Assembly (NCBI GenBank): GCA_002788675.1 | Contig: PFRS01000004.1 | Coordinates: 1 to 49,170, forward strand | Length of the DNA: 49,170 bases | Source of the DNA: Candidatus Pacebacteria bacterium CG_4_9_14_0_2_um_filter_40_15 | Lineage (GTDB): Bacteria > Patescibacteriota > Microgenomatia > UBA1400 > PJMF01 | Direction: 5' to 3' | Part shown: positions 1-14,685 of the stretch, piece by piece | Position numbering within the stretch: the first letter of the stretch is position 1 | Layout of the letters: each line of letters opens with the position of its first letter | Position numbers and translations under genes: made by a program | Notes under the pieces: generated by a model | Database searches by the model: none | Told to the model about the DNA's origin: nothing | What the model saw: only the letters and a program-made list of their open reading frames with translations

Positions 1-133
1 CTACCGTACTTTCCATTTTTCGGGTAATCTGGATATTTTGTATCTGCTATTATTTTTTTTTGCTACTTACTACTATGCGCAAGGCATATTTTGCACCAGC
101 TCCTTTTTTTATAAAAAAGGGAGGGTTCAAAAG

Positions 134-162
134 AAAAAAGCCCCGTTGGTACGGGGCTTTTT
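134..162 (-). terminator. Intrinsic terminator downstream of rplT (probably bidirectional)
   Basis: AAAAAAGCCCCG-ttggta-CGGGGCTTTTT hairpin with A/T tracts on both sides. Confidence 0.8.
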
Positions 163-184
163 ATATTTACTTTTTTAGTTTTGG

Positions 185-538
185 TTACCCACGTACCTTA
201 GAGACTAAGCTTTTAAAGGCACTAAAGTCGGCGATAGCAAGTTCAGATAACATTTTACGGTTAAGCTGAATGTCTGCTTTCTTTAAAAGGTTCATGAAAC
301 GTGAATAGTTAAGTGTTTCGTCAGCTTCTTTTACAGCTGCACTGACACGTAAGATCCAAAGCTTGCGCATGTCTCTTTTACGAAGTTTGCGTCCGATGTA
401 GGCATATTGGCCTGCATGAAGGAGTGCTTCACTTGCTCTTTTGTAGAGTCTGTTATTAGTACCGCGGAAACCCTTAGTGAGTTTGAGTACTTTCTTATGT
501 CGTCTGTGGCGGGTTACGCCTGTTTTTACTCTTGGCAT
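185..538 (-). CDS. rplT: 50S ribosomal protein L20
   Basis: MPRVKTG..RHKKVLKLTKGFRG, RKRDMRKLWILR, LNRKMLSELA motifs; infC-rpmI-rplT order. Confidence 0.98.
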   Translation of the reverse strand: MPRVKTGVTRHRRHKKVLKLTKGFRGTNNRLYKRASEALLHAGQYAYIGRKLRKRDMRKLWILRVSAAVKEADETLNYSRFMNLLKKADIQLNRKMLSELAIADFSAFKSLVSKVRG

Positions 539-565
539 GATATATATTCCTCTTCTGTTCTATTG

Positions 566-781
566 TTATGCAATTCCAAGCATTCGCTTGATTTTCTTTG
601 CCCACTTTCCAGTGACTTCAACTGGCTTTCGGTAAGCTCTAATTGCTTTTTTACTTTTAATACGACGTCTGTGTCGCATGTTTTGTGAACGTCGAAGAAC
701 TTTACCGGTAGCGGTAATTTTGAAACGCTTGGCTACACCAGAGCGAGTCTTCTGTTTCATTTTTGTCTTCATTTTTTGCAT
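566..781 (-). CDS. rpmI: 50S ribosomal protein L35 (true start may be a downstream Met)
   Basis: KQKTRSGVAKRFKITATGKVLR motif; between infC and rplT. Confidence 0.95.
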   Translation of the reverse strand: MQKMKTKMKQKTRSGVAKRFKITATGKVLRRSQNMRHRRRIKSKKAIRAYRKPVEVTGKWAKKIKRMLGIA

Positions 782-795
782 GATTTGACCTCTCC

Positions 796-1335
796 TTATT
801 TTTTCGATGGCATAAGTTGCGCCATGAGCTTTTTGCCCAACATCTTTGGTTCGACCTCGACTGTAGCAATTTCTGATGTTTCAGAGATTACACGATCGAA
901 TATTTCATATCCAAATTCTTTTTTAGTAATTGCACGTCCTTTAAACATAAGTGAAAGTCGAACTTTGTCGCCTTTTTCAAGGAATTTCTTCACTTTATTT
1001 AAACGTGCCACCAGGTCGCCTTCTCCCATAAATGGTGAAAAGCGAACTTCTTTTAAGTCCTGAGACTTTGCTGTCTTACGGTTTTTTGCTTCTCGTTGCT
1101 GTTCTTGATACTTGTATTTAGCAAGATCAATAATTTTAACAATGGGCGGTTGAGCTTTTTCATTGACTAAGACTAAGTCTTTATCAACTTCGCGGGCTTT
1201 TTCTAAGGCTTCTGCCTTAGTCATGATGCCCAGCATCTCTCTTTGTTCTGTTAACACTCTTACCTCGGTTGCCCGAATGAATTCATTAACTGCAATTCGG
1301 TTTTTTCTCGAGTAATTTGATTTGTTGTTTTGCAC
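796..1335 (-). CDS. infC: Translation initiation factor IF-3
   Basis: NEFIRATEVRV, DLVLV..AQPPIVKI..KYKY, KEVRFSP, GDKVRLSLMFKGR motifs; exact start uncertain (GTG). Confidence 0.97.
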   Translation of the reverse strand: MQNNKSNYSRKNRIAVNEFIRATEVRVLTEQREMLGIMTKAEALEKAREVDKDLVLVNEKAQPPIVKIIDLAKYKYQEQQREAKNRKTAKSQDLKEVRFSPFMGEGDLVARLNKVKKFLEKGDKVRLSLMFKGRAITKKEFGYEIFDRVISETSEIATVEVEPKMLGKKLMAQLMPSKK

Positions 1336-1622
1336 TATTATGTGTATAACTTTCTGAAGCCTGTGTTCTAACAGACTCGTATTTTACCGTACCTCCACGA
1401 AAAAACCAAACGATCTTTTCGCGGAAGTTGGATTATAGCATCTTTCTTGAGGTAAGGGAAGTGTGTATCATGTTGCACATGACTCAAAAAAGCATCTCTC
1501 CTCATTTTTTAAATAAAAAGTTCCTAGCCATTGCAGAGTTTAAAAAGTATGTCCAGACTTTATATCCTTCTATGGTGTTCATTGAGAAGTACTCTTTCTG
1601 GCGATTTAACCTTAGCAGAATC

Positions 1623-1649
1623 AAAAACACCTCGCCTAAGCGAGGTGTT
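1623..1649 (-). terminator. Intrinsic terminator for the 1672-2073 gene
   Basis: AACACCTCGC-ctaa-GCGAGGTGTT hairpin with T tract on the minus strand. Confidence 0.75.
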
Positions 1650-1671
1650 CTAGTTTTAATTTTGGAGTTGG

Positions 1672-2073
1672 TTACTCTTCAACTTCAGTTTCAACTGTTT
1701 CAGAAACATCTTCTGCAACTTCAGTTGCTTTGATGTTTTTGATTACTAACATTTCGATAATAGTATCGAGTTTTTTAGTAAGAGTTGCAAATTGTTGTGA
1801 GTAATCAACTTGTGGTGCTTGAGGTCGACTTGGTCTGTCTGAAAAACTTCTCTTGCTAGAGAAATCTCGGCCACCGCCACGGTTGTTACCGCCGCCTTGA
1901 CTCTCGAAACAGTCACTACAAAATACTGGTTTGCCACTTGATGGCATGAAAGGAACTTTACAGTGACTTCCACATTTTGCACAAGTTGCGTCATGCATTT
2001 GTCTATCAGATGAGCCTCTTCGATCGAAATCTCTGCCACCTCTATTACCACCACCTCTGTTGTTGTCGTACAT
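1672..2073 (-). CDS. CxxC-x17-CxxC zinc-ribbon protein with Gly/Arg-rich flanks
   Basis: MHDATCAKCG..CKVPFMPSSGKPVFCSDCF motif. Confidence 0.85.
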   Translation of the reverse strand: MYDNNRGGGNRGGRDFDRRGSSDRQMHDATCAKCGSHCKVPFMPSSGKPVFCSDCFESQGGGNNRGGGRDFSSKRSFSDRPSRPQAPQVDYSQQFATLTKKLDTIIEMLVIKNIKATEVAEDVSETVETEVEE

Positions 2074-2212
2074 ATTCTTTTCTTGTGTAGCCCCCGGCTA
2101 CGTGCTTTGTATAAGGTGTAAGTATAGCATGAAATAGCTTATAAGTATATGAGGGGTGATGTTTTCAGGGTTTGAACAGTGGAAAAGGATTGAGTTATGC
2201 TACTTGTTTAGT

Positions 2213-2365
2213 TGAAGGCTCGGGAGGACTTCTCGCTCACTTCGTTCGCTGCGAGATGCTCGTGCTTGAGGAGGCTAACGCGATTTACTACTCGCATAAC
2301 GAACCATAGCCTCTCTCCTACCCCAATTCACACATAAAAAAACACCCTTTGGGTGTTTTCTCTGT
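2213..2365. repeat. tRNA-3'-end-associated structured mini-element including the original tRNA-Val terminator
   Basis: Degenerate tRNA-Val end TGAAGGCTCGGGAGGACT (2213-2230); hairpins TCTCGC/GCGAGA and GAGGCTA/TAGCCTC; terminator AAAACACCC-ttt-GGGTGTTTT. Confidence 0.55.
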
Positions 2366-2367
2366 GT

Positions 2368-2508
2368 GAACTAGGAGGAACAAAGCTTGAACTTTTTGCA
2401 TCATTGAAACAAGCGATTATTTTGCATTGGGAGTTGCGGGATCTCGATATGCAGATTTTTTCTGATGCAAAGGAATATAGTGGTTTCGTTGACTATTTTA
2501 AGTACTGA
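2368..2508 (+). other. Displaced 3' end of the recombinase gene (46 sense codons, in frame after att joining)
   Basis: GAA CTA GGA GGA ACA AAG CTT ... AAG TAC TGA, open in the frame set by the recombinase's GGT GAA CT at the core. Confidence 0.65.
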
Positions 2509-2605
2509 TACCTATAGAGATAGTGAAATCCTGTTTCCTTACAACTGAACAAATGCAACTTTTTAGCTTGGGAGACACTGTTCAATACTGGACAGCATTT
2601 TGCGC

Positions 2606-2637
2606 TTGAAATAGTTATACAAAATGTATATATTTCA
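2606..2637 (+). promoter_or_regulatory. Sigma70-type promoter of the retron-like operon, overlapped by an imperfect palindrome
   Basis: TTGAAA(2606)-17 nt-TATATT(2629); TGAAATAgtTATAC-aaaat-GTATATATTTCA. Confidence 0.55.
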
Positions 2638-2640
2638 GCT

Positions 2641-2950
2641 GTACCTTAATATTATTACTTTAAATCCCGTAGCGCTGTTCTCGATACAAGACACTCGTTT
2701 GTCTCAAACTCATTTCTCAAGTACAGAGAGATAAGACTTCAACCAAGCACTAATTATATTTGCTTTTTTTGCTTATTTGGTGACACTGATCTGTCAACAT
2801 GGTCTAGATCTATAGAGGCGACCACTTTGCGTGAGAACATATGGGCCGTGTTTATGACGTGTCACTCTACCTTTACTAAGGTAAGATCCAAAGAAAGGAA
2901 TACCCAATATGGCAGAAACACAAATAAATTCTTTTATTAAAGTAGTAGTA
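2641..2950 (+). ncRNA. Putative retron msr-msd-like structured RNA
   Basis: 14-bp long-range stem 2650-2663/2937-2950 (two G-U pairs); inner stem 2666-2682/2833-2845; several local hairpins; directly upstream of HTH-RT. Confidence 0.7.
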
Positions 2951-3073
2951 AGTGTGTCGCCCTTGAGGGTGTTACGAGATGCAGTATTTACTGTTTATCG
3001 TACGGATTTTCAGACTTATTTTCTGGATTTTCCGTTTATTAGAGTCGCTCAGACGCTAGTAAGCACCCTCTAA
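2909..3073 (+). CDS. 54-aa small protein, putative retron effector (absent from the ORF track)
   Basis: AAAGGAA Shine-Dalgarno, then ATG; MAETQINSFIKVVVSVSPLRVLRDAVFTVYRTDFQTYFLDFPFIRVAQTLVSTL; stops 35 nt before the HTH gene. Confidence 0.6.
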   Translation: MAETQINSFIKVVVSVSPLRVLRDAVFTVYRTDFQTYFLDFPFIRVAQTLVSTL

Positions 3074-3108
3074 CTCACTAATATCAGAAAAAATTTTATC
3101 TAAAAACT

Positions 3109-3432
3109 ATGTATTCACTTCCAAATTTTTTAAAAGCATTTCGTAAAGCAACAAACTCTTCTCAGGCTGAGTTTGCAAACTTTCTGAATGTTTCAACAGT
3201 TTTAATATCAATGATCGAGTCACAACAAAAACAAGCATCAAAGAAGTTCATTGAAAATCTAGCAAAAAAAATTGATGTGCATCCTGGAGCTCTTGCATTA
3301 TTTTATTATAATGATGAAGACAGAGAGAGATTAACAAAATTAGAGAAGGAACTTGTTAATATTGGCACAGAATTACAGAGGAAAATTATTTTAAAAAGAG
3401 CAAAAAGCATTAAAATTAATGAAAAAAAATAA
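3109..3432 (+). CDS. XRE/Cro-C1 family helix-turn-helix protein, RT-associated
   Basis: LKAFRK...SQAEFANFLNVSTVLISMIES HTH pattern; 14-nt overlap with the RT gene. Confidence 0.85.
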   Translation: MYSLPNFLKAFRKATNSSQAEFANFLNVSTVLISMIESQQKQASKKFIENLAKKIDVHPGALALFYYNDEDRERLTKLEKELVNIGTELQRKIILKRAKSIKINEKK

Positions 3433-4390
3433 CTACCCACAGTTTGGCATTCGTAGTAAAAATGAATTAGCTAAGCGTATTAGTTCAAAATCTTTACCAG
3501 CTAATGAGGCTCTTATTTTAATAAATGATGTACTTGAAAACCATGAGGGATACTGGAAGGACAGTAAAATGTCTGAACCTGAAAAGGGTAAATATGTCCG
3601 TTCATGTGTTGGAACTCCACTTCATAGATTACTGAACCTCATCGATAAGAGAATACTTAGACCTTATGACAAGTTAGCGCCCCACTTTATTTTTGGTGGA
3701 TTATCAAAAAAAAACCATATCCAAGCTGCTCATTATCTTATTGGTTCAAAAAAAAGAAGGTCTCTTATCAAACTTGACATAAAAAGATTCTATGAACAGA
3801 TCACACAAGAAAGAATTTTTTATTTTTTTTATAAAAAAGCAGGTTGCAGTGTTAGGGCATCTAGACTACTTGCATATATTTGTTGTGTTACCCAAGGTGC
3901 AAAAGGGAATCCCGGTGTTCAAAGGGTTTTAGCTCGCGGCTTTTCTACGTCTTCTCGCCTGGCTGTCTGGGCTAATCTTGATACTTTTTTGAAATTGAGA
4001 TGGAAATTGCAAGCTGAGCTTGGGAAAAATGATCCCAAAATTGCAGTGTATGTTGATGACATTGGGATTTCTGTGGCTGATGTGTCACAGACAAAATTAG
4101 AAGAGATTGCATTAATGATGGCTGAGATTCTCGAGTCATCTGATGCAAATCAACCTTTGCCTATTAATAACGAAAAATTAGATATTATGAGTTTTGAAAA
4201 GAATGCAGAGCACTTAGGTCTGAGGCTAGGGAGAAAAGCTATTTTTATGGGTAACAAGATTATGTCAAAGATTCGTAAGATTAAAAATGACTACCAAAGA
4301 GCTGAAAATAATACAAAATTTAAACTAATGAGTAAGAGAATTGCATATCGTCTATATCAGAAACAAATTGATAAACAAAATGAACAGTAG
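3419..4390 (+). CDS. Reverse transcriptase, divergent retron-like
   Basis: LDIKRFYEQI, LARGFSTSSRLA (PQG-equivalent), catalytic YVDD, INNEK, HLG; 323 aa with no maturase or nuclease domain. Confidence 0.9.
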   Translation: MKKNNYPQFGIRSKNELAKRISSKSLPANEALILINDVLENHEGYWKDSKMSEPEKGKYVRSCVGTPLHRLLNLIDKRILRPYDKLAPHFIFGGLSKKNHIQAAHYLIGSKKRRSLIKLDIKRFYEQITQERIFYFFYKKAGCSVRASRLLAYICCVTQGAKGNPGVQRVLARGFSTSSRLAVWANLDTFLKLRWKLQAELGKNDPKIAVYVDDIGISVADVSQTKLEEIALMMAEILESSDANQPLPINNEKLDIMSFEKNAEHLGLRLGRKAIFMGNKIMSKIRKIKNDYQRAENNTKFKLMSKRIAYRLYQKQIDKQNEQ

Positions 4391-4433
4391 ATATGTGAGT
4401 GACATGAACAAAATTTCAGAGATTATCGCCTTT

Positions 4434-4955
4434 TTATTTTTTGTCCAAGCTAAGTTTTTTCAACATTGCTTTATCAGCTTTTGCAGTAAGTCTTTTTTCA
4501 ATTGTCTCTGATTTTATTTCGTTTTCTCTATTTTCTTCAAAAACAGGTTGTAGATCTTCAAGATACTTCATACTGATTCTGTTAGAAAGAATGCTTTCTT
4601 GCGCATTTAACCATGCAGCATAGTCTTGTAGTACCATAGCTGTTTGTTTAATATCAAACTTGAATTTTTCTTGTAGGTGGATATTTAATCCAGATATTTT
4701 TTCTTGTTTTAAACCGACTTCGCTGATTTCTCCCACTCGCCTATTGTATTCCTTTTGCCCTCTCATTTTGATCATGATTTCGCTGCTCTTTTCGATATCA
4801 TCAAGAACATCAGCTAAAGATTCTTTAAACCGCTGTTCACTTCTAAAAACATAGTCGGTAATTTTTTCCATTGCTTTCTGAGGTTGTTCACTCGCCCAAT
4901 TTTGAAGCAAGCCGTATGCAATAAAAATTATTACTAAAACAACAACAATTTCCAT
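4434..4955 (-). CDS. Hypothetical protein with N-terminal membrane anchor and helical body
   Basis: 173-aa ORF with hydrophobic N-terminus. Confidence 0.75.
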   Translation of the reverse strand: MEIVVVLVIIFIAYGLLQNWASEQPQKAMEKITDYVFRSEQRFKESLADVLDDIEKSSEIMIKMRGQKEYNRRVGEISEVGLKQEKISGLNIHLQEKFKFDIKQTAMVLQDYAAWLNAQESILSNRISMKYLEDLQPVFEENRENEIKSETIEKRLTAKADKAMLKKLSLDKK

Positions 4956-5288
4956 AGAATCCCTTTTCTAATAGCTTCTTTGGATTATTTAGTAGCTATT
5001 CTATATTAGAACCAATTATACAGTAGTACTGTCTTATTACGATTTTGACTAAGAAGCAATAGAACTTTTTGACACACATGATGTACAACTCTGCTACTGT
5101 AAAGTGATATTCTTTACAGAAAACAACTTATAGTGTATGCTATAAATCTGTCCAGCACCCACTTATATCTCAACTTTGTTGTGATATGTCCAGGGTGCTT
5201 TTTTGTAGCATTTTTGCTGTTACATAGCAGGTGTAATGGAGATAAGGACTTGTATTATTAAAACTGCATTTAAATCTATAACAAGTGC

Positions 5289-6029
5289 ATGGAAGGAATT
5301 ATGAAAATATTTATAGATGAGTCAGGCGACCATAATCTTGACTCGACAAAGTTGGATAATAGCTACAATGTTTTCGTGCTGGGAGCAGTATGTTTTTCTG
5401 AAGATAACTATCAGTTACTTTGTGAGAGGCTTAATCAGATAAAGCAAGACCTATTTGGTGGCAAAGATTACATAATTCATACAGCTGAGATTGTTAGACC
5501 AAGCAATTCTACAGATCCACGAACACAATTATTCAATAATATAGATTTCAGAAATACATTTTATTCAACAATAGAGAATATTTTTGACGAAATCAATTTT
5601 GAAGTGATTGCTTGTTGTGTTAAGAAATCACAGCATCTTGAGAGATATGGAGCATATGCTAGTGACCCGTACATATTTGGTTTTGAAAACATCTTGAATA
5701 GAATAATGTGGAGGTCAAAAGGTGAAAAATGTGAGATATACCCTGAAAAAAGATCTCAAGCTGAAGATGGATTGCTTGAAATTAATTATTTAAAAGCAAA
5801 AATGTCGGGCACGAAGTTTTTTACTGGTAGTCAGGTATCCGCTAGAATTGAGACTTTTAAAACAATTGATAAAAAAGCTAATGAGTGTGGGTCACAGATT
5901 GCGGACCTAGTTGTAAGTCCGATTGGAAGACATTTTATGGGTATCAAACCTAGAAAACCGGGAAATGAACTTAAATATCAGACTGTTAAGCGAAAAATTC
6001 CAAATAGGTGTCTCACTGTGTTTCCGTAG
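5289..6029 (+). CDS. DUF3800-like protein (RNase H-like acidic motifs)
   Basis: N-terminal IFIDESGD, FVLGAV, C-terminal QIADLV. Confidence 0.85.
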   Translation: MEGIMKIFIDESGDHNLDSTKLDNSYNVFVLGAVCFSEDNYQLLCERLNQIKQDLFGGKDYIIHTAEIVRPSNSTDPRTQLFNNIDFRNTFYSTIENIFDEINFEVIACCVKKSQHLERYGAYASDPYIFGFENILNRIMWRSKGEKCEIYPEKRSQAEDGLLEINYLKAKMSGTKFFTGSQVSARIETFKTIDKKANECGSQIADLVVSPIGRHFMGIKPRKPGNELKYQTVKRKIPNRCLTVFP

Positions 6030-6030
6030 A

Positions 6031-6105
6031 AATAAAAAAAGAGCCCCCGCTCCGCAGTGACTCTTTATTACATGTATTCTATTATATTTTTATGCTTTGC
6101 GTCAA
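6031..6105 (-). ncRNA. Possible tiny antisense transcription unit convergent on the DUF3800-like gene
   Basis: Minus-strand TTGACG-18-TAGAAT followed by hairpin AAAGAGTC...GGCTCTTT and a T tract. Confidence 0.35.
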
Positions 6106-6181
6106 TATCAATATTTATTACTCAGAACGTGCGGTTTTATCGGGTATTTCTGTGGGACATTTAGTGCTGTTTTTATTTCGT

Positions 6182-6391
6182 TTAAAAACCCAAAAGTTTT
6201 GAAGCGGTACTATCCAAAGCTTTAGTGAGCTTTTTGATAGTTTTTATAGTAGAGTTGCTATTTCCAGACTCAATAAAACGAATTGTTCTCACATCTCGAT
6301 CAATTTGGTATGCCAGTTCCTCCTGAGAAAGCCCGAGCGCTTTTCTTCGCGTCCGAACATTTTCACCAAATACCTGAAATATACTTCCCAT
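6182..6391 (-). CDS. XRE-family HTH regulator (controller-protein-like)
   Basis: FGENVRTRRKALGLSQEELA...IESGNSN. Confidence 0.9.
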   Translation of the reverse strand: MGSIFQVFGENVRTRRKALGLSQEELAYQIDRDVRTIRFIESGNSNSTIKTIKKLTKALDSTASKLLGF

Positions 6392-6464
6392 ACAGCAAGA
6401 ATATGAGATAATGACTTGGAATGACAGGAAATATATTACCTATTCTTGCATATGTTAAATACAA

Positions 6465-7091
6465 ATGAAAACAAATAGACTAATTTTTCAACTACTTGGA
6501 TCAATAACTGAGTTTTTGTTAGATGATGAAACATGGAAATTGTTTGGTTACAAAAAAAGACCTAAGCGTGGAGCAATTTTTTCAAGACTATTTCCTAAAA
6601 AATATGAACTTGATAACTTTATATTCAGGCATTTTTTCATACTTGGAGTTATTGATGTACTAAATGGAATTAAAAAATCAAAACAGTCGGATTATAATAA
6701 GACGATTGTGATTCTAAACTTTTTTGAAGAAGTGGATGTGTTATCAAAGAACACTGATTGTTTGACTGACTTATTAAAAGACCTACCAACAGCATACGAC
6801 ATATACAAAGAATCAAATCCAAAGAATCTTTATGAGCCATATTTAAGTAAATCGGAAAACGTCCTTGGAAGTACAAATTCAGCAAGATTTCTGATTGGCA
6901 TATCAAAAATTCAGTTTGAACGAATGTTAATGGATATCAGTGCTAAAGACTTTTTCCTTTCTTCAGATCGTGTTGCTGAATTAATAAACACCCAAGACAT
7001 TGCAGCTGTTAAAGAAGATTTGACAGGCTTTTCAAAAGAAACATTAGAAGAGTATGGAAAATTCATATCAAAACTAATTTCCGAAATTTAG
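6465..7091 (+). CDS. Hypothetical protein
   Basis: 208-aa ORF divergent from the HTH gene; no recognised motif. Confidence 0.7.
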   Translation: MKTNRLIFQLLGSITEFLLDDETWKLFGYKKRPKRGAIFSRLFPKKYELDNFIFRHFFILGVIDVLNGIKKSKQSDYNKTIVILNFFEEVDVLSKNTDCLTDLLKDLPTAYDIYKESNPKNLYEPYLSKSENVLGSTNSARFLIGISKIQFERMLMDISAKDFFLSSDRVAELINTQDIAAVKEDLTGFSKETLEEYGKFISKLISEI

Positions 7092-7188
7092 CTCAATTTC
7101 TTGCGAACATCCAGAGTTTTCTTTAGAGTCATGTGTGCGGAGTATTTAGATAAGGCAGGATATCTGTTCAGAGCGTATAATATTTGAT

Positions 7189-7776
7189 ATGCCAGAGCTT
7201 TTTGTAGACAGCAACGATGAGAACGCAATTAAACAACCATTTGGAATTTGGATTGCTTCGCTAGTAGTATTTTTTATTTCAATTTTCTCATTAGCAAGCG
7301 AGCAGCTTGTGGTTTTCATATTTGGATTTTTACTCGTAGCTTCATTTGTTGTAGGAGTAATTGCATTTATTATTATGGTTGTGAGAGTAGTTAGAACTCT
7401 TTTAAAGAATGAATCTTTCAAGAGTGGGTTGGGTTCTGTTATTTCTTATGGAGCTTTTATTATTTTTGGACTTTTCCTCCTAAGAGGTTGTACTTCAAGT
7501 GGAAGTAGCAGCAGTGGCGGAGGAAGATATTATGATGATTACGATAGCTACGATTACTATGAAGAACCTGTAACTAGTGATAGCTGGGACTGTACAAGTG
7601 ACTGTTCTGGACACGAGGCAGGGTATGAATGGGCTGAGGACAAAGGAATCACAGATCCAGACGATTGTGGTGGCAATTCTGATTCATTTATTGAAGGCTG
7701 TGAAGCATATGCAAATGAATACAATATGGACAATTATGATGAAGAGTATTATGACGATTATGATTATTACTATTAG
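7189..7776 (+). CDS. Membrane protein with Cys-rich acidic C-terminal domain
   Basis: About 3 hydrophobic helices, then CTSDCSGHEAGYEWA...DC..SFIEGC and a Tyr/Asp-rich tail. Confidence 0.8.
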   Translation: MPELFVDSNDENAIKQPFGIWIASLVVFFISIFSLASEQLVVFIFGFLLVASFVVGVIAFIIMVVRVVRTLLKNESFKSGLGSVISYGAFIIFGLFLLRGCTSSGSSSSGGGRYYDDYDSYDYYEEPVTSDSWDCTSDCSGHEAGYEWAEDKGITDPDDCGGNSDSFIEGCEAYANEYNMDNYDEEYYDDYDYYY

Positions 7777-7805
7777 TGTGACAATAAGCGCTTATTTTTA
7801 GCCTG

Positions 7806-8417
7806 TTAGTTGGAAATAGTTTCATCTAATTCCCAGACTCCATCTTCGTTAGCTGTTAGTACTTCTTCTTTTTCAAGCTTGTAGCTAGATAGTTTCTCTT
7901 CTAAATCAATATTCCATTTGTAGTAAGAAAAAAGTTTAGTGTCATATGAAATGCTAGATAATGTAACGATATCACGAAAACCATTCGTTAATTCATCCTC
8001 TACTTGGTAAACAGTGCCATCAAACTGTCCAACAACATACCACTGATCATCAACTTCCATTAGTGCCACAATTACTCCATTGCCAGATGCAGTTCTCAAT
8101 GTTACACCACATATTTCCCATGGATAGACTAAGTACTCATTCTTTTGATCATCATTCAGATCGACTTCCTCAATTTTAAAGTCGTGAGGAGTCTGCAATA
8201 CATCTGCTGAAGAACAATTTCCATGCTCTGTTGTAGTGAGAACGTGTTGTAATACTAAGCTGAGTGCGTCTTCGGGGATTTCGACTTTTGATTCTGAAGT
8301 TACCACAGCTATTTCTCTCTGATTGCTATCAAGAAGGATTTGTTCATTTTGAAAGTACTTAAAAGCAAAAAGGCCTGCTATGGTAGCCAAAAAAATCAGT
8401 GCTAAAGATGTACGCAT
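7806..8417 (-). CDS. Exported or membrane-anchored hypothetical protein
   Basis: Signal-like N-terminus; DLNDDQKNE Ca-binding-like loop. Confidence 0.75.
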   Translation of the reverse strand: MRTSLALIFLATIAGLFAFKYFQNEQILLDSNQREIAVVTSESKVEIPEDALSLVLQHVLTTTEHGNCSSADVLQTPHDFKIEEVDLNDDQKNEYLVYPWEICGVTLRTASGNGVIVALMEVDDQWYVVGQFDGTVYQVEDELTNGFRDIVTLSSISYDTKLFSYYKWNIDLEEKLSSYKLEKEEVLTANEDGVWELDETISN

Positions 8418-8618
8418 GTTCTTCTTTCTTTGTTCACTAGTCTGGCACTATCTTAGCACAGCTTGCTATGTTGCAACTTATAGGCGAAGTGCGCAACTTG
8501 ATCAGGAAGTAGAAGCTTGATTGTTGAGATAGATGACCCCTCCTTGTAGGAGACCCACCCTTAAGGAGTTGCTGTATCTATACAAGTAGCTTGATATGTA
8601 TGCAGTCCATTTGTGAGA

Positions 8619-9548
8619 CTAGAACCTAAAAATCATCACTCTCAAAATAGTAGTTAACATTTTGTTGTTAAGTAATTCATCCCAAAAGGAACTACTTTGT
8701 GCTTCAGAATTCAAGTCCGCTACATCTTCATTGAAGCTATCTTCAACTTCAGCTTCGACAGTAACTTCTTGAACTGTTGGGCTTGAAGTCGGGCTAGGAT
8801 CAGGTGCGGGGGTTGGTGCTAGTACTGTGTGTGTTCTTTTCTTTGTCTGACCTGGCACTGAAACTGTTAGTGTATAGGTTGTCTCTTTTTCAGGATTAAC
8901 AATAACACGTCCCTCTTTGATTTGTGTTTGAGTTAGGTTTCCAACTTCAGGAGTAATTGAGTAGCTCGCACCACATTTTGCAACAAATTTAAGTTCTGTA
9001 GTTCCATCATCAAGCTTGTAGGAATTAAACCTGTTTATTGCTATCTCAGGCTCTGGTACATCCACTTCCCAATTGTAGACGCCACTCCAACCACAAGAAT
9101 TTCCGCCTTTTACATTAACATACCATTTTCCTGGAGCAACGTCATTGAAAGTAACGCTTCTTGTTGTTGTATCAGCAACTGGACCCGGGTCGGCGCCTGC
9201 CGTTTTTGATAATGCGACACTATACTCATTGTCGCCAATACCTTTGTCCCAAGTAAAAGTAACATCTTGCTTGCAATCAACTTCTTTGAATTCAAGGCTA
9301 CCCTTAGTATCGCTCAAGTTTGGTTTGTTACAGATAGGTGCAACGTATGTATTCTTTGTTGGTTGGTATGCTGATCCACCATTGTGGTAGTGATACGTGC
9401 CAGCACATGATCCAACGTTACAATTATGCCCACCTGATGAATCTGTTCTGCCTGAATGAGCAAGAGCACTCATGGATGAAGAAAACAAGATTACTAGAGA
9501 AAGAATGAGGATATTTTTGATTTTTGAGTACATAATGTATTTTACCAT
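8619..9548 (-). CDS. Secreted YHYH-motif protein with beta-rich domains and Pro/Thr linker
   Basis: Signal peptide ending ALA-HSGRTDSSGGHNC...TYHYHNGG. Confidence 0.8.
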   Translation of the reverse strand: MVKYIMYSKIKNILILSLVILFSSSMSALAHSGRTDSSGGHNCNVGSCAGTYHYHNGGSAYQPTKNTYVAPICNKPNLSDTKGSLEFKEVDCKQDVTFTWDKGIGDNEYSVALSKTAGADPGPVADTTTRSVTFNDVAPGKWYVNVKGGNSCGWSGVYNWEVDVPEPEIAINRFNSYKLDDGTTELKFVAKCGASYSITPEVGNLTQTQIKEGRVIVNPEKETTYTLTVSVPGQTKKRTHTVLAPTPAPDPSPTSSPTVQEVTVEAEVEDSFNEDVADLNSEAQSSSFWDELLNNKMLTTILRVMIFRF

Positions 9549-9921
9549 AGATCTGAAAAAAGTTATGTCATATAAATAATATAGGATTACTACTAAAGTT
9601 TAAGTCGCGTTGTTTCAGATGAGAGATGTATAACAGCCTTACTTTTGGGTATGACAAGGGGTTGTTTTTAGTTGGGTGCTTCATATAATTACAAAGCTTG
9701 TAAACTGTTCAACTATTTTAAAGTGTGCTAAAAGTAGTTAGTAACAGCAAAAAACTAACTATAAGGTATAGTAATTGCATTTTGTTATGATTGAGACGTT
9801 ACGGCGTCTAGTCCACGTTTTTAATTAAACGTCGTCATGATTGAGGTGTTCTTACTTTGGATGGCAGGTCTTCCTGCCCTTGTTGTGGTGCTCATGCCTC
9901 ACAAATCTAAGTAAGGATATC

Positions 9922-10098
9922 GTGTCAAAAAATACACGCAAATCTCCTAGTAGTAATGTTCAGCGTCTCTCAAATAGAGAAATTGGGGAGTTTCTAGAGC
10001 TAATGCGCTCTGTAGATACTAAGTGCGAGCTTGCAAGGCTAAACGAAACTACTCTGCTCGACAGAAGCGATGATAAGGGTAGAAGAATAAAATACTGA
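9922..10098 (+). CDS. Small protein (58 aa) upstream of the recombinase
   Basis: AAGGA then GTG at 9922; in frame with track ORF 9841-10098. Confidence 0.4.
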   Translation: MSKNTRKSPSSNVQRLSNREIGEFLELMRSVDTKCELARLNETTLLDRSDDKGRRIKY

Positions 10099-10166
10099 TT
10101 TCTCAATACTAAAATAACCTTGAACCATTTTTTTGCATAAGAGTGTTTATAGTATAATTTGTCATT

Positions 10167-11825
10167 ATGTATCAAAAACAAGCATCAGATATCACAAAAT
10201 TAAAATATGCGCTATATATCAGGAAATCTACCGATGACGCGAAAAACCAAGTGCGGTCGACAGAAGATCAGCTCGCAGAGTGTAGAGAGCTTGTAAAACA
10301 ATTAAAGATTAATGTTGTTGGTGATCCAATTATTGAAAAGAAATCTGCAAAGATTCCAGGCTTAAGACCAAAATTCAAGCAACTGCTGAAAGATGTGAAA
10401 GCAGGCAAATACTCTGGCATAGTTTCCTGGCACCCCGATAGATTGGCACGAAATATGCTCGAAGGTGGAAAAATTATTGATTTACTTGATAAAGAAGTAT
10501 TAAAAGACCTCAGATTTGTTACTCATCACTTTACTAATGATGCAACAGGAAAGATGCTACTTGGTATCTCATTCGTTCTTTCAAAACTTTACACTGATAA
10601 CCTTAGTAACAACGTAACCAGGGGTATTCAGGGAAATCTCAAAGATGGTATCGGACTGCATAGAAAGCACGGTTATGCTAAAGATGAGGAGACTGGTCGA
10701 TTTATTCCGGACGTAGATAATGATAATTTCCAGTTAGTAGGTGATGCATGGCAGCTTAGAAAAGAGGGTGCTTCACTTGAGTCAATTGCAGAGTACATGA
10801 ACTCAAAAGGGTATGGAAAACTCATTAAAAGCAGTGGTAAAGAAGTAATAATGGGGAAGAAAAAACTGAGCCTAATTTTTAAGGATACTCTCTACTATGG
10901 CGTTTTGGTTCAGGGTGGTGAGAGTGTTGACTTAAGAACAATACCTGGATATGGGTTTGAACCACTCGTATCAGAAGAAGATTTTTTTGAAGTACAAAAG
11001 TTGAGTAATACAAGGAAACAGCCATATAAAAAGCAAAAACAAGCAAACTACAATCCTTTTAGGCAGTTGATTAAATGCTCATACTGCGGAAAACACATGC
11101 TGATAGCACCTTCCAGTGGTAACAAATATAAATATTTATTTGCAAGATGTGACAACAAGCTTTGTGTAAGAAATTCTGAAGAAAACAAGAAAAAAGATCG
11201 TAATGATCCAACAAAAATAAAAGTATCTGTCAGAGTAAAGGTTGTGCTTGATTTTATTTATAATCTACTCGATAACGGATTGAATTTTTCAGAGGCTGAC
11301 TATAGTGAGTATCTTAAGAATTTTAAAATTCTTAGTGAAAAACAAAAAACTGAAATCACCCAAGAAATTCATATAAAAAGAGGGCTCTTATCAAGAGTTA
11401 GTGCTGAAGTAAAGGACCTATCACTCAGTTATATGAAGCTTGATAAAAGCAAAGAAACAATTAAAAAAGTTACGGAAGAAAAAATCACAGAACTTGAGGA
11501 ACAGCAGTCTCTACTCGAATCTGGTATTAGGAAACTAAAAGAAAAAATTGCTAACCCTGAATCAGAACAACTGACGATTGAAGAGTTCTTGAACCTTTCA
11601 AAAAATGCCGGTACAGTCGTCAAATCTGCAAATGCAATCATTAAGGACAAGATTTGTCGTTTTATCTTCTTGAACCTTTCAATTGATGGCGAAAAAGTAG
11701 TGAGTTTCAGGCTAAGAGAGCCGTTTGAAACACTCATGAACGTAAAAAAAAAGACAATAAGGACTAATGGTGAACTCGAGAGGACTCGAACCTCTGACCT
11801 CTACAATGTCAATGTAGCGCTCTAA
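10167..11825 (+). CDS. Large serine recombinase (resolvase + recombinase + Zn ribbon + coiled coil)
   Basis: YALYIRKST (catalytic Ser), DRLARN, CSYCG...C..C; last codons are antisense tRNA-Val. Confidence 0.95.
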   Translation: MYQKQASDITKLKYALYIRKSTDDAKNQVRSTEDQLAECRELVKQLKINVVGDPIIEKKSAKIPGLRPKFKQLLKDVKAGKYSGIVSWHPDRLARNMLEGGKIIDLLDKEVLKDLRFVTHHFTNDATGKMLLGISFVLSKLYTDNLSNNVTRGIQGNLKDGIGLHRKHGYAKDEETGRFIPDVDNDNFQLVGDAWQLRKEGASLESIAEYMNSKGYGKLIKSSGKEVIMGKKKLSLIFKDTLYYGVLVQGGESVDLRTIPGYGFEPLVSEEDFFEVQKLSNTRKQPYKKQKQANYNPFRQLIKCSYCGKHMLIAPSSGNKYKYLFARCDNKLCVRNSEENKKKDRNDPTKIKVSVRVKVVLDFIYNLLDNGLNFSEADYSEYLKNFKILSEKQKTEITQEIHIKRGLLSRVSAEVKDLSLSYMKLDKSKETIKKVTEEKITELEEQQSLLESGIRKLKEKIANPESEQLTIEEFLNLSKNAGTVVKSANAIIKDKICRFIFLNLSIDGEKVVSFRLREPFETLMNVKKKTIRTNGELERTRTSDLYNVNVAL

Positions 11826-11844
11826 CCAACTGAGCTACGAGTTC
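11768..11844 (-). tRNA. tRNA-Val(GAC)
   Basis: Cloverleaf GAACTCG...CGAGTTC-ACCA; anticodon arm CTACA-TTGACAT-TGTAG; GTTCGAG T loop. Confidence 0.97.
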
Positions 11845-11892
11845 AAATGTGTTTTATGTATTAGGAAGGAACGAGACGTATTATACCAGACG

Positions 11893-12561
11893 TTAGTCGC
11901 CTGAGTAAACGGTAGATCGCTCGTGGTGCATCATGTCGAAGACTGTTTTGGTTTGCTCGTGTGCTGCCCCATCAATGTGAAGGCCGCCACGTTTCTTTTT
12001 CTTCTGTTTAGCGTGGAACTGTGTAGACCAAGTGCGAGCACTTTTAATCTTTTGGCGCAGTAACATGATGAATGAACGGAGATTTCTAAAGAAGTTAAGG
12101 TAGTATTTACCAGTAAGTCCAGGAGTAGCAACTTCAGCCATAACGGTTAATTCGATCTCTTTTTCGAATTGAGCCACGTCACGCACTAGAAGTTTAAGTT
12201 CCCGACGGAGTTCTTCAATTTCTTTTTTGACTTCTTTTTCACGAGCGTCATAGACGGCACGCATGTCGACAGGATTTACTTGATCGTGTAATTTTTGGCG
12301 AAGAACTTCTTTTTTACGCTGCTTCTCCATTTGGAGTTGCTGCTGTTCTTGCCATCGTTGTTGGTCTTCGGGTGAGTTATTTGTAGGAAGATTTCCACCA
12401 GTGCGAGCTAAAGCCTCACTAAAAGGGTTAAGCTTTGGTGATTCAGGATTCTCTTGTGCTGTCCCTCGAGGTTTTTCAGTTTCAGCCAACGCACGAGCAA
12501 AAGGATTAACCCCTTGTTGAGGGCCCTTGCGAGATTGAGTGGTAGGTGTTCCTGGTTTCAT
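11893..12561 (-). CDS. Conserved CPR coiled-coil protein (DUF5660-like)
   Basis: NPF repeats, coiled coil, GKYYLNFF..L...I..ARTW; family name recalled, not searched. Confidence 0.7.
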   Translation of the reverse strand: MKPGTPTTQSRKGPQQGVNPFARALAETEKPRGTAQENPESPKLNPFSEALARTGGNLPTNNSPEDQQRWQEQQQLQMEKQRKKEVLRQKLHDQVNPVDMRAVYDAREKEVKKEIEELRRELKLLVRDVAQFEKEIELTVMAEVATPGLTGKYYLNFFRNLRSFIMLLRQKIKSARTWSTQFHAKQKKKKRGGLHIDGAAHEQTKTVFDMMHHERSTVYSGD

Positions 12562-12629
12562 TTGTTACTATATGTTGTGTTTGTATGATACATGACTTTG
12601 TGCAAACAAGAAATGTATTTAATAGTACG

Positions 12630-12658
12630 ATTATAGGCCTACTTGAGGCTCCTGTCAA
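12630..12658 (-). promoter_or_regulatory. Consensus sigma70 promoter for the 11893-12561 gene
   Basis: Minus strand TTGACA-17 nt-TATAAT. Confidence 0.8.
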
Positions 12659-12722
12659 GAGTCTTGACTGAAACGGTGGGTAGGCCTATGGTTCTTAATT
12701 TCTGTTAGAAAAAGTGCTGAAT

Positions 12723-13694
12723 TTATTTAAGATTTAGCAAGTGGTCAGCAACTCGTTGTCGAAGTAAGGTTTCGACAAGCATTGATTGATAACGTGGGTC
12801 TGCTTTTTGTTGCTCTTGGAGCTTTTTGTCTGCAGTTTGCTCAATAACTTCGTCGATATCTTTCTGTTCGATCTTAATTTTTTCTTCTTCTGCCAAGGTG
12901 CTAATGATGAAGGTTGCTTGTAAGCGACCAAGTGCCCCTGCAGCTAATTCAGTTGAAAGTTGTTCAAATGACATGCTTCTGTGTTTAAGGAAGTCTTCGA
13001 ACTCGATGTTCATTCCTTTAAGACGGTATGAGAGGTTTTCGAGATCGTAACGAGTCTCTTCTTTTACCAAGAGTTCTGGAATTTCTGGTTTAATGTGCTC
13101 GATTAAGTCTTTGTAGATTACTTGGAGTTTGTGTTCACGGCGTTGTTGATCAGTAATTTCATGCGCATGGTTATGCTTTTCGTCTGACTTTTCAGCTTCT
13201 TTAACGTGCTCAGCTAATTCTTTTTCTTGTTTTTTAAGTTCTGCCTCAGCTTTTTTAAGTGCTTTCTTTGCTATGTCTTTGTAGCCTTTGGTGTTGATTT
13301 CTGGTTTTTCTGCAATGTGAACCTCAAGCGTCCAGTCTTCACCTTTTTTAAGAGAAATTGGGTTAAATTCTGGATAGGTAAGTGGTTGTTTCTTTTCTTT
13401 TTCGATTAGAGTTCTGTATGCATCAGGAACGCAGATCTCTAGCGCGTCTTGAATAATGCGATCTTCACCCAGCATTTTTTCAGCAACGTCAGCGGGAACT
13501 TTTCCTTTGCGAAAGCCACTGGTTTTAAGGTCTTTTGAAAGTTTATTTAGTGTTTTTTTGTAGGCTGCAGCTGCGTCAGCTTTATCGATTACTAAGGTAA
13601 GAACTGTGTTTTTGCCGATTAAAGCTTTTTCAGTTTTCTTATCTGTAGTTGCAGTTTTTTTAGTGGTTTTTTTGGGTTTGGTAGTTTCTGTCAT
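12723..13694 (-). CDS. tig: Trigger factor (short form)
   Basis: GFRKGKVP ribosome-binding signature and C-terminal chaperone-like region. Confidence 0.9.
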   Translation of the reverse strand: MTETTKPKKTTKKTATTDKKTEKALIGKNTVLTLVIDKADAAAAYKKTLNKLSKDLKTSGFRKGKVPADVAEKMLGEDRIIQDALEICVPDAYRTLIEKEKKQPLTYPEFNPISLKKGEDWTLEVHIAEKPEINTKGYKDIAKKALKKAEAELKKQEKELAEHVKEAEKSDEKHNHAHEITDQQRREHKLQVIYKDLIEHIKPEIPELLVKEETRYDLENLSYRLKGMNIEFEDFLKHRSMSFEQLSTELAAGALGRLQATFIISTLAEEEKIKIEQKDIDEVIEQTADKKLQEQQKADPRYQSMLVETLLRQRVADHLLNLK

Positions 13695-13866
13695 AGGGAG
13701 TTATTATACCGCAACTTCTTTTTTTTTGGCTGTGAGTTTGGCTTGATGTTAGGCGCTTTATATACTTGGGATCTGTCTGGATGAATATTTTGCCTATCTG
13801 AGGGTGAAAAAGTGCCCTTTGTTTGCTATACTACTTTTCTGTTGATAAGTACTACAGGAGAGACAC

Positions 13867-14685
13867 ATGTCTACAAAAACTCTTTTACATCATATTGATG
13901 ACTACGTTGCAGGTGGTCTCGAGTTCGCAGAAATCGATACTCGCCTTCACAACGCAATCAAAGATCATCAAAATGTTTTTATCCACGATCTTTCGGTTCC
14001 TTCTCTTGACACCGTAGCCCTTGGCTTCGTGACCTCACAACTTGCGTTCGCTCCATACAAAGGCAGGATGGTTATTTATGGTAACTGCGCGCCACGTCGA
14101 ACTTCAGAAAAAGCTCAAAAGAATAACATCGATCATGGTATTAAATATGCCAAGCTAAAAAATGGTGTTGAAATCATTAACGTTTGGTCAGACTATGCCT
14201 TTGGATTTGTGAAGAGTGAAATTGTTGAGTTTAGAGATCTTAACTGCCCTAATTCTGGTTCACAGTTCCGTTCAAGAGACTTCTTTCCTGAAGTAGTCGC
14301 TCAAATTGTAAATGGTGACTACTCTGCTCTAGGTAAAGAACTTGATGTAAACGATATTCCAGAAATTGAAAACAATATCGTTACTTGGACTGATGGATTT
14401 GGAAACGTAAAGACTTCCATGCGCAGCAGTGATTTAGATGCAATGGGTCTTACCCCTGGCGATAAAGTTCAGGTAATTATGAATGGAGTCTCAATGCTTG
14501 GAGTGCTCTCTATTGGTGGCTTCCAAGTTGATCGTGGAGTTTTGGCTATTAATGCTGGTTCATCTGGGTATGATAACCCATTTATCGAGTTGTTCCTTCG
14601 TGTACACAAAATGTCTGAAAAGACGGCCGCGGTACGCTTTGGTTACCCTACTGGGGGAACTGAGTTTGAGATTAAACCTTTATAG
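13867..14685 (+). CDS. SAM hydroxide adenosyltransferase / DUF62-like protein
   Basis: FRSRDFFP and DGFGNVKTS motifs. Confidence 0.65.
   Translation: MSTKTLLHHIDDYVAGGLEFAEIDTRLHNAIKDHQNVFIHDLSVPSLDTVALGFVTSQLAFAPYKGRMVIYGNCAPRRTSEKAQKNNIDHGIKYAKLKNGVEIINVWSDYAFGFVKSEIVEFRDLNCPNSGSQFRSRDFFPEVVAQIVNGDYSALGKELDVNDIPEIENNIVTWTDGFGNVKTSMRSSDLDAMGLTPGDKVQVIMNGVSMLGVLSIGGFQVDRGVLAINAGSSGYDNPFIELFLRVHKMSEKTAAVRFGYPTGGTEFEIKPL

Follow-up and report, generated by a model that had tools for sequence, protein, structure and literature searches.

Integrases with the attachment (att) site attP inside their own coding sequence are already known from Mx8 and from the SSV type, as is the splitting of an integrase gene. 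The Mx8 integrase is a tyrosine recombinase, and Mx8 integration targets a tRNA gene. In Mx8, attP is located within int, which acquires a new 3′ end on integration and is not destroyed (PMC6070905). SSV-type integrases have their recombination site inside the open reading frame (ORF), tRNA targets, frequent target switching and a split gene (PMC7253208). Here, we describe a 9.4-kb island in a 49,170-nt stretch of the genome of Candidatus Pacebacteria bacterium CG_4_9_14_0_2_um_filter_40_15 (contig PFRS01000004.1; the whole stretch is referred to as the window). The island was very probably inserted at the 3′ end of a tRNA-Val gene by its own large serine recombinase (LSR), with attP among the last codons of the integrase gene, the tail of which was cut off by the insertion.

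The window integrase works like the ORF-spanning integrases of the Mx8 and SSV types and is not a member of either. As in Mx8, where intP becomes intX, attP is embedded in the coding part of int and the gene has a new 3′ end once integrated; Mx8 differs in its chemistry, its arm-type sites and its longer identity segment. With the SSV type, it has in common a recombination site in the integrase ORF, tRNA targets and target switching, which here amounts to at least 18 changes among 39 proteins. The SSV split, however, yields two inactive pseudogenes, whereas here only a tail past the last confidently modelled element is lost, and the enzyme family is a different one: both of those types are tyrosine recombinases, and the window integrase has serine recombinase domains. 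The sizeable tDNA fragment and displaced tRNA fragment of Islander-type integration are lacking, as a repeat search of positions 1–14000 found no displaced tDNA fragment and only 7 bp are shared. A further parallel is the integration-dependent immunity of actinobacteriophages, which involves attP in a gene, a truncated product, a new stop at attL and differing C-terminal degradation tags. There, the repressor is split and the integrase is a tyrosine integrase, whereas here the serine integrase itself is split, and a degron in its tail is conjecture.

Like the LSRs of LI/A118, Bxb1, phiC31 and SPbeta, the window enzyme combines Resolvase, Recombinase and zinc-ribbon domains and a coiled-coil insert with short att sites, a short core and a 5-bp offset. 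Unlike these LSRs, its family targets the 3′ ends of tRNA and tmRNA genes, and no recombination directionality factor (RDF) was identified here. An earlier note on the window had stated that tRNA targeting is commoner for tyrosine than for serine integrases, which agrees with the Islander paper; in the main text of a large LSR survey, the word tRNA occurs 0 times (PMC10083194). In the main texts of the open-access literature, we found no serine integrase whose attP is embedded in the ORF of the enzyme, no serine integrases with systematic targeting of tRNA and tmRNA 3′ ends, no attP mimicking the universal T-arm with a 5-bp offset, and no tRNA-targeting LSRs in Patescibacteria; members that target tRNA genes may be listed in the att tables of large LSR surveys.

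Island Borders and Split Integrase Gene

The borders of the island were observed directly by comparison with relatives that lack it. When the left flank was searched against 40 relatives, a genome of the same genus (G001) was found to match window 2220–2372 about 1.7 kb past its infC match. At this locus (L112), window 2220–2379 aligns with 2312–2472 and window 11770–14496 with 2458–5137, the two matches adjoining and overlapping; the tRNA-Val lies at 2458–2532, and in the alignment the terminator hairpin is directly followed by the core GTGAACT and the tRNA. The similarity at attL ends just after GTGAACT, and that at attR begins at GTGAACT. Because the homology to G001 breaks exactly at the core, 2373–11769 represents a 9,404-bp insertion; the comparison with island-free relatives that the earlier note had suggested places the boundary precisely where that note had put it. 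G002, G003 and G004 also lack the island and have different sequence downstream of their tRNA. The GC content is about 0.40 in the flanks versus 0.30–0.36 over most of 2400–11800.

The integrase ORF (Table 1) has the C-terminus NGELERTRTSDLYNVNVAL, and its 3′-most 58 nt overlap the tRNA-Val(GAC) gene on the minus strand. Residues 1–537 of this 552-aa isoform are encoded by the element and the final 15 residues by antisense tRNA sequence. At the left border, the codons stranded at attL are in the same phase as 11772, and the first two of them (EL) are encoded by the core and common to both isoforms. With the frames checked, a rejoined isoform would add 44 residues after residue 537, resulting in 581 aa. 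Two statements of the earlier note were confirmed in this way: that the recombinase ORF crosses the core and ends in antisense tRNA, by the overlap of the ORF with the Rfam tRNA, and that 46 sense codons follow the left core in the same phase, with the stop ending at 2508. Its statement that the tail has no start of its own stands in part. There is an in-frame GTG at 2353, giving a nominal 51-aa ORF (2353–2508), but this GTG lies within the terminator stem, and the tails of relatives have no conserved start. The minus-strand terminator that the same note had seen left of 2366, and had placed next to the tRNA in the empty site, is supported both by its fold (z −7.3, with 0 of 200 shuffles folding equally well) and by G001. 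The hairpin is not among the calls of a consensus terminator scan and is revealed by the fold energy.

The tRNA-Val(GAC) gene is present in a single copy among the 44 tRNAs of the genome and, being single-copy, would have to function while the island is integrated. Its T-loop, TCGAAC at 11786–11791, corresponds to positions +16..+21 of the B′ arm. TATAAT is found 8 nt upstream of the integrase ATG (10128–10169) with no visible Shine–Dalgarno sequence, and the integrase mRNA may be leaderless.

Conservation of the Stranded Tail

BLASTP of the window tail against the unsplit homologue P0009 gave E 1e-5, residues 4–39 matching residues 516–551 of 558 in register. The earlier note had asked which of the two tails aligns with homologues, and had let its reading depend on the tail having a counterpart there; the stranded tail does align, with counterparts in P0009 and in the 13 profile matches described below. 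The C-termini of the 120 best homologues, all of Patescibacteria-type sources, are of three kinds, namely antisense-tRNA tails (...RTRT...AL before the stop), 3-residue ends after 'RG', and a few long tails (P0009, P0047 and P0080).

A profile of the window and P0009 tails was iterated over 39,913 six-frame stop-to-stop peptides from 96 loci and the window. It converged on 13 matches with E values of 5e-23 to 3.6e-15, the next best being at 0.47. All 13 matches are located on the integrase strand at a distance of 1.3–7.8 kb upstream of int, and each of them stops precisely where the tail does; their start distances are variable and without a conserved start. Over the entire genome from which the window derives, there is a single match to the profile, at 2338–2505 (E 1.2e-16).

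For the closest pair of tails (L001/L002), the proportion of synonymous differences (pS) is 0.65 and that of nonsynonymous differences (pN) is 0.20, corresponding to a ratio of nonsynonymous to synonymous substitutions (dN/dS) of 0.15. In 10 of 10 tail pairs pN is lower than pS, synonymous sites being saturated in four. These substitution patterns indicate that the tail is under purifying selection. Tryptophan occurs at tail positions 13–32 in 20 of 28 tails, and at least two of the final four residues are hydrophobic or aromatic in all 28. The conserved tail residues (L/F)E(L/R)(L/F) are encoded by the TTGAAC motif of the att site, and this part of the tail would be under dual constraint.

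A profile of 14 tail sequences gave 72 matches among 1.84 billion representatives of protein clusters, all of them C-terminal in ORFs of 41–148 aa. To judge from this position, these small ORFs are stranded tails called as genes, and such tails would explain a class of orphan small ORFs beside tRNA terminators.

Unsplit relatives were also recovered. Two metagenome contigs (L119, L120) carry a 562-aa ORF with the tail and attP-type spacing and have no tRNA in the 12 kb covered; a third locus (L134) has a long tail and an int with one internal stop. In L119 (450–7619), a second, different LSR is located at 5805–7619, 3.7 kb from the unsplit integrase, and housekeeping-like genes follow. The element may be carried inside another one. 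L116, 83% identical to unsplit P0009, has lost the attP core region at 2790–2930 (about 23 codons gone plus a frameshift), the tail remaining readable in another frame; this locus could represent a copy that has become immobile or a misassembly.

Anatomy of the att Sites

For 12 close loci, the att sites were anchored on GT, i.e., C74/A73 of the tRNA. The cores of L005, L007 and L011 were set by hand to the GTCG common to the other tRNA-Pro loci, the automatic longest-match pick being discarded, and an unbiased DNA-only scan later gave the same positions for these three. In all 12 loci, TTGAAC occupies positions +21..+26 of the P′ arm, and the B′ arm carries T(T/C)GAAC, the T-loop sequence, at +16..+21. 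A 5-bp offset between attP and attB, with the motif nearer the centre in attB, is thus directly observed at 12 of 12 loci. Such an offset is how the zinc-ribbon domains of LSRs distinguish attP from attB. The zinc-ribbon domain (ZD) motif of the LI integrase occupies positions 16–24 in attP and 11–19 in attB, i.e., 5 bp closer to the centre (PMC3783163).

The common cores measure 4–7 bp: GTCG plus extensions at tRNA-Pro, GTGC or GTGG at tRNA-Leu, and GTGAACT in the window. Cores of 5–8 bp are typical of serine integrases (PMC8092301). The crossover probably falls within the first four bases of GTGAACT; the exact crossover dinucleotide is one that we infer.

A DNA-only signature was defined as a 4-nt core plus the T-loop hexamer of the respective locus (at most one mismatch), shifted by 5 bp. 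It was applied to 37 loci, which are the 46 tRNA loci of the family (see below) minus four Gly loci, where the T-loop pattern failed, and minus five with less than 1.5 kb upstream. The scan gave 32 matches in 28 of the 37 loci versus six on the reverse-strand control. The in-phase open length following the match was 43–55 codons in 29 of the 32, the remaining three having 5, 38 and 100, and all 64 off-phase open lengths were 33 codons or shorter. A motif near some attL sites, CACTTCGTTC, has eight matches versus about three expected and is too weak to interpret.

Family-Wide Design and Target Switching

The family census comprised 97 sources (96 loci and the window), in which 53 matches reach query residue 500 or beyond. 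In 46 of these 53 loci, the ORF was observed to terminate in the 3′ part of a tRNA gene on the minus strand, the targets being tRNAs for Pro, Leu, Lys, Met, Ser, Asp, Val, Ala, Gly, His, Gln and Ile. In L042 (11485–11900) it ends in a minus-strand tmRNA gene, and three loci have no room before the contig end; an antisense tRNA or tmRNA ending is thus found in 47 of the 50 loci with room. Within the same order, covering 200 genomes and the window's own (201), matches at E ≤ 1e-40 were obtained in 53, with 49–50% identity for the nearest. Of 19 loci fetched from this order, 16 end in tRNA-Pro, two at contig ends, and one has the long form.

The run-on after the crossover comprises five codons in 17 of 42 loci, where a TTCAA-type T-loop gives an in-frame TGA, and 17 codons in 14 of 42, where the stop lies in the D-loop. 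Since these lengths vary with the tRNA, the C-terminus of the integrated form is arbitrary. The islands of the family span 2.9–11 kb, and their integrated int ORFs are mostly intact.

A tree was calculated for 39 integrases; from the 46 tRNA loci, L011 and L027 (partial), L028 (internal stop) and the four Gly loci were left out. It requires 18 changes of target tRNA (minimum 11; shuffled mean 25.4; 0 of 200 shuffles as low). The Val enzyme of the window belongs to a clade of 10 with eight Pro, one Leu and one Val target (support 91/96). The tRNA-targeting design with an ORF-embedded attP is shared, as indicated by these comparisons, by a large and apparently undescribed family in Patescibacteria.

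Serine integrases are prized as tools for their short att sites and one-direction reactions, and the setting of this direction is under active study. The family adds systematic targeting of tRNA and tmRNA 3′ ends, an attP mimicking the T-arm, and the location of attP within the integrase ORF itself, whereby the enzyme differs between the states of the element. With the family, a class of small islands is defined that is common in reduced patescibacterial genomes.

Integrase Domains and Predicted Structure

The Resolvase domain (PF00239) was detected with E 1.1e-23 and 84.4 bits at a cut-off of 23.3, and there is no variation at R19, K20 and S21 among 30 sequences; the Recombinase domain (PF07508) scored 30.4 bits at a cut-off of 21.1. 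The zinc ribbon (PF13408) stays below its cut-off in the window protein (20.1 versus 25.3 bits); C304, C307, C328 and C333 are invariant, and beta strands at 297–336 in the P0009 model agree with a zinc ribbon. A coiled coil in the zinc-ribbon domain (helices 356–404 and 410–441) is taken from the AlphaFold2 (AF2) model of the homologue P0009 and not from the window protein. In an NCBIfam search only sub-threshold matches to XisF and Ccr models were obtained, and in a PDB sequence search the match was limited to the catalytic domain. By its domains and invariant residues, the gene product is identified as a large serine recombinase. Catalysis of attP × attB recombination and RDF-dependent excision are predicted from this membership.

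The AF2 model of unsplit P0009 has a mean predicted local distance difference test (pLDDT) score of 81.4 and is confident up to residue 507, the swapped part lying beyond. Because the cut follows the last confidently modelled element, the integrated isoform is predicted to keep all folded domains, and it probably retains the core activities of the enzyme. A complex prediction of integrase residues 280–536 with the tail gave an ipSAE of 0.01, which is evidence neither way. The window's own genome (assembly G000) encodes two further, distant serine recombinases (C8:129276–130265 and C8:354843–356021), each 27% identical to the window integrase.

Proposed Mechanism and Alternatives

In the scheme proposed here, the LSR would insert the island at the 3′ end of tRNA-Val(GAC), crossing over at the discriminator and the first positions of the acceptor stem. 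The 73 nucleotides of the tRNA would all remain intact after insertion, the trailer and terminator alone being exchanged. attP would lie wholly inside the integrase ORF, with the P arm before residue 535 and the P′ arm in the first tail codons, and the P′ arm would imitate the tRNA T-arm with its T-loop-like hexamer 5 bp farther out. Integration would sever the gene after residue 537 and leave 44 codons at attL, and excision would rejoin it to encode the 581-aa protein. That attP lies within the integrase gene and that the isoforms differ in their C-termini, as the earlier note had proposed, is supported by the empty site, the tail homology and the selection on the tail. In the integrated state, the tRNA-Val is followed by the U9 run only in place of the hairpin (fold there −2.6 kcal/mol, z +1), and the best promoter-like site of the region (11909–11880) faces the tRNA; with its terminator lost, transcription of the tRNA may run antisense into int.

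Several observations weigh against this scheme. GTGAACT has seven matches in the window versus 6.84 expected, which is chance level on its own; the significance of the core derives from the empty site and the homologues and not from the repeat itself. BLASTP revealed no similarity between the window tail and those of the long-tailed homologues P0080 and P0047, and no protein above 500 aa is among the 72 representative tail matches, unsplit forms being rare in these data. The P0009 tail has a pLDDT of 31–45 and one short helix, with no fold or docking site. Across the loci, neither a tRNA nor a tmRNA is present where the ORF ends in L023, L029 and L051 (three of the 50 with room), and the available DNA of nine of the 37 scanned loci contains no P′ signature. 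The symmetry with the P′ and B′ arms is weak, as the P arms have a weak T-rich counterpart of the motif and the B arms have none. A conserved RDF candidate was not found in the islands compared. The junctions of the excised state, which the earlier note had suggested looking for, did not turn up either. The island is contained in 24 sequencing runs, all as assembled contigs, and the contigs of four of them (X1, X6, X7 and X9) bridge both junctions in the integrated state, with no attP joint; assembly G000 contains neither of the junctions computed for attP and attB, and the attP 23-mer of the earlier note has 0 matches in IMG/VR. Since contigs drop rare variants, absence from contigs does not show that excision fails to occur.

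In the proposed scheme, the tail would act only in the episomal isoform, in integration competence, directionality or protein lifetime. A built-in directionality switch had been put forward as a possibility by the earlier note. Protein lifetime could be affected through the nonpolar C-terminus, by analogy with integration-dependent immunity. A possible, still tentative extension is that recombination rewrites the recombinase itself. The tail would then be a cis-acting module for directionality, integration competence or lifetime, by which the LSR senses its own state without a separate RDF, and recognition of the T-loop by the zinc ribbon would ease retargeting to other tRNAs via core-proximal changes of attP.

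We regard it as rather unlikely that integration is instead one-way, or 'suicidal', with an inactive truncated integrase and a tail kept by selection in an episomal lineage that seeds insertions. The missing excised form (contigs, IMG/VR, assembly), the unsplit genes in other contigs and the lack of an RDF among the islands compared would fit this explanation, and the SSV-type integrases, for which such a course has been proposed, provide a precedent; unlike in SSV, however, the catalytic, recombinase, zinc-ribbon and coiled-coil parts stay together in one ORF. Integrated int ORFs are, moreover, mostly intact, and an episomal lineage is hard to picture for islands of 2.9–11 kb, that of the window being without replication or transfer genes.

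It is improbable that the overlap has no isoform-specific function, attP being placed there for compactness or T-arm mimicry and a dispensable tail being constrained as a DNA site only. Conservation over about 140 nt extends far beyond the P′ arm of about 26 bp, even though (L/F)E(L/R)(L/F) coincides with the TTGAAC motif. The tail is not confidently modelled, as such a dispensable segment would allow, but its length is held at 43–55 codons in phase, its tryptophan and its hydrophobic or aromatic C-terminus recur in 20 and 28 of the 28 tails, respectively, and the dN/dS of 0.15 goes along with near-saturated synonymous sites.

Very improbable is a separate translation of the stranded tail in the integrated state, for example from GTG 2353, to act in trans as a small factor. 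The nominal 51-aa ORF and the 72 comparable small ORFs called as genes in public data are set against the position of this GTG inside the terminator stem, the variable fragment starts at 13 loci, none of them conserved, and a frame that is always continuous with int across the core. A chance repeat, with the island ending elsewhere and 46 accidentally open codons, accords with the 7-mer frequency and is already contradicted by the empty site, which breaks exactly at the core, and by the homology of the tail to other tails, which leaves it next to no probability.

Feature Coordinates, Flanks and Island Cargo

Table 1. Positions of the att-site, integrase, tRNA and cargo features in the window.
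Feature	Position	Strand	Basis or remark
Terminator hairpin, 21-bp stem and U-run, B arm of attL	2325–2372	−	Fold −26 kcal/mol
attL core GTGAACT	2366–2372	+	Antisense of tRNA positions 74–68
Stranded integrase 3′ end, 46 codons and stop	2368–2508	+	Stop 2506–2508; phase same as 11772
P′ arm of former attP, within tail codons	2373–2392	+	T-loop-like TTGAAC 2387–2392 at +21..+26 from T of GT
Helix-turn-helix (HTH) protein	3109–3432	+	Pfam HTH_3; PADLOC HTH_VI 7.6e-13
Reverse transcriptase (RT)	3419–4390	+	Pfam RVT_1; PADLOC RT_VI 2.6e-27; overlaps HTH gene
Remaining cargo: DUF3800 protein and six ORFs	4434–10098		The six ORFs without family above threshold
DUF3800 protein, island cargo	5289–6029		Pfam
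LSR, integrated isoform, 552 aa	10167–11825	+	Pfam Resolvase, Recombinase, Zn_ribbon_recom; homologues
P arm of former attP, within integrase codons	11744–11769	+	Holds A9 run, U9 on tRNA strand
tRNA-Val(GAC), integration target	11768–11844	−	Rfam tRNA 73.7 bits
attR core GTGAACT	11770–11776	+	Antisense of tRNA positions 74–68

The island is flanked by housekeeping genes, with rplT, infC and a zinc-finger protein on the left and a DUF5660 protein and trigger factor on the right. In G003, locus L113 (G003:C4:88000–97000) contains about 3.4 kb of extra DNA (448–3897), placed between the positions that correspond to window 1469 and 1880.

A segment of about 90 nt left of the terminator (2220–2310) has partial copies in G000 (C1:145705–145760), G001 (C5), G003 (C4) and G032 (C1). 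A search against Rfam at E ≤ 0.1 returned nothing for it, and it appears to be an unexplained short repeat or small RNA. One contig of run X7, retrieved with window 1700–12500 (depth 3.56, side 30), joins 2271 to 11768, the intervening letters not being known. It was not counted as an empty site, as the joint is off the core and may come from a relative; it could represent a related strain in which the site is empty, or a chimeric joining of the 2220–2310 repeat to a conserved tRNA.

In the comparison of related islands, no cargo protein of the window was found to have a relative in another island, and no replication or transfer genes are among the proteins of the window island. A type VI retron is defined by an HTH protein, an RT of the type VI clade and an msr/msd RNA. 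The HTH and RT genes of the island, which PADLOC assigns to type VI retrons, form a retron-like pair and are a candidate for such a retron. The ORF at 7189–7776 ends in imperfect repeats rich in Tyr and Asp (family D1), and its sole family match is a sub-threshold one to Tetraspanin.

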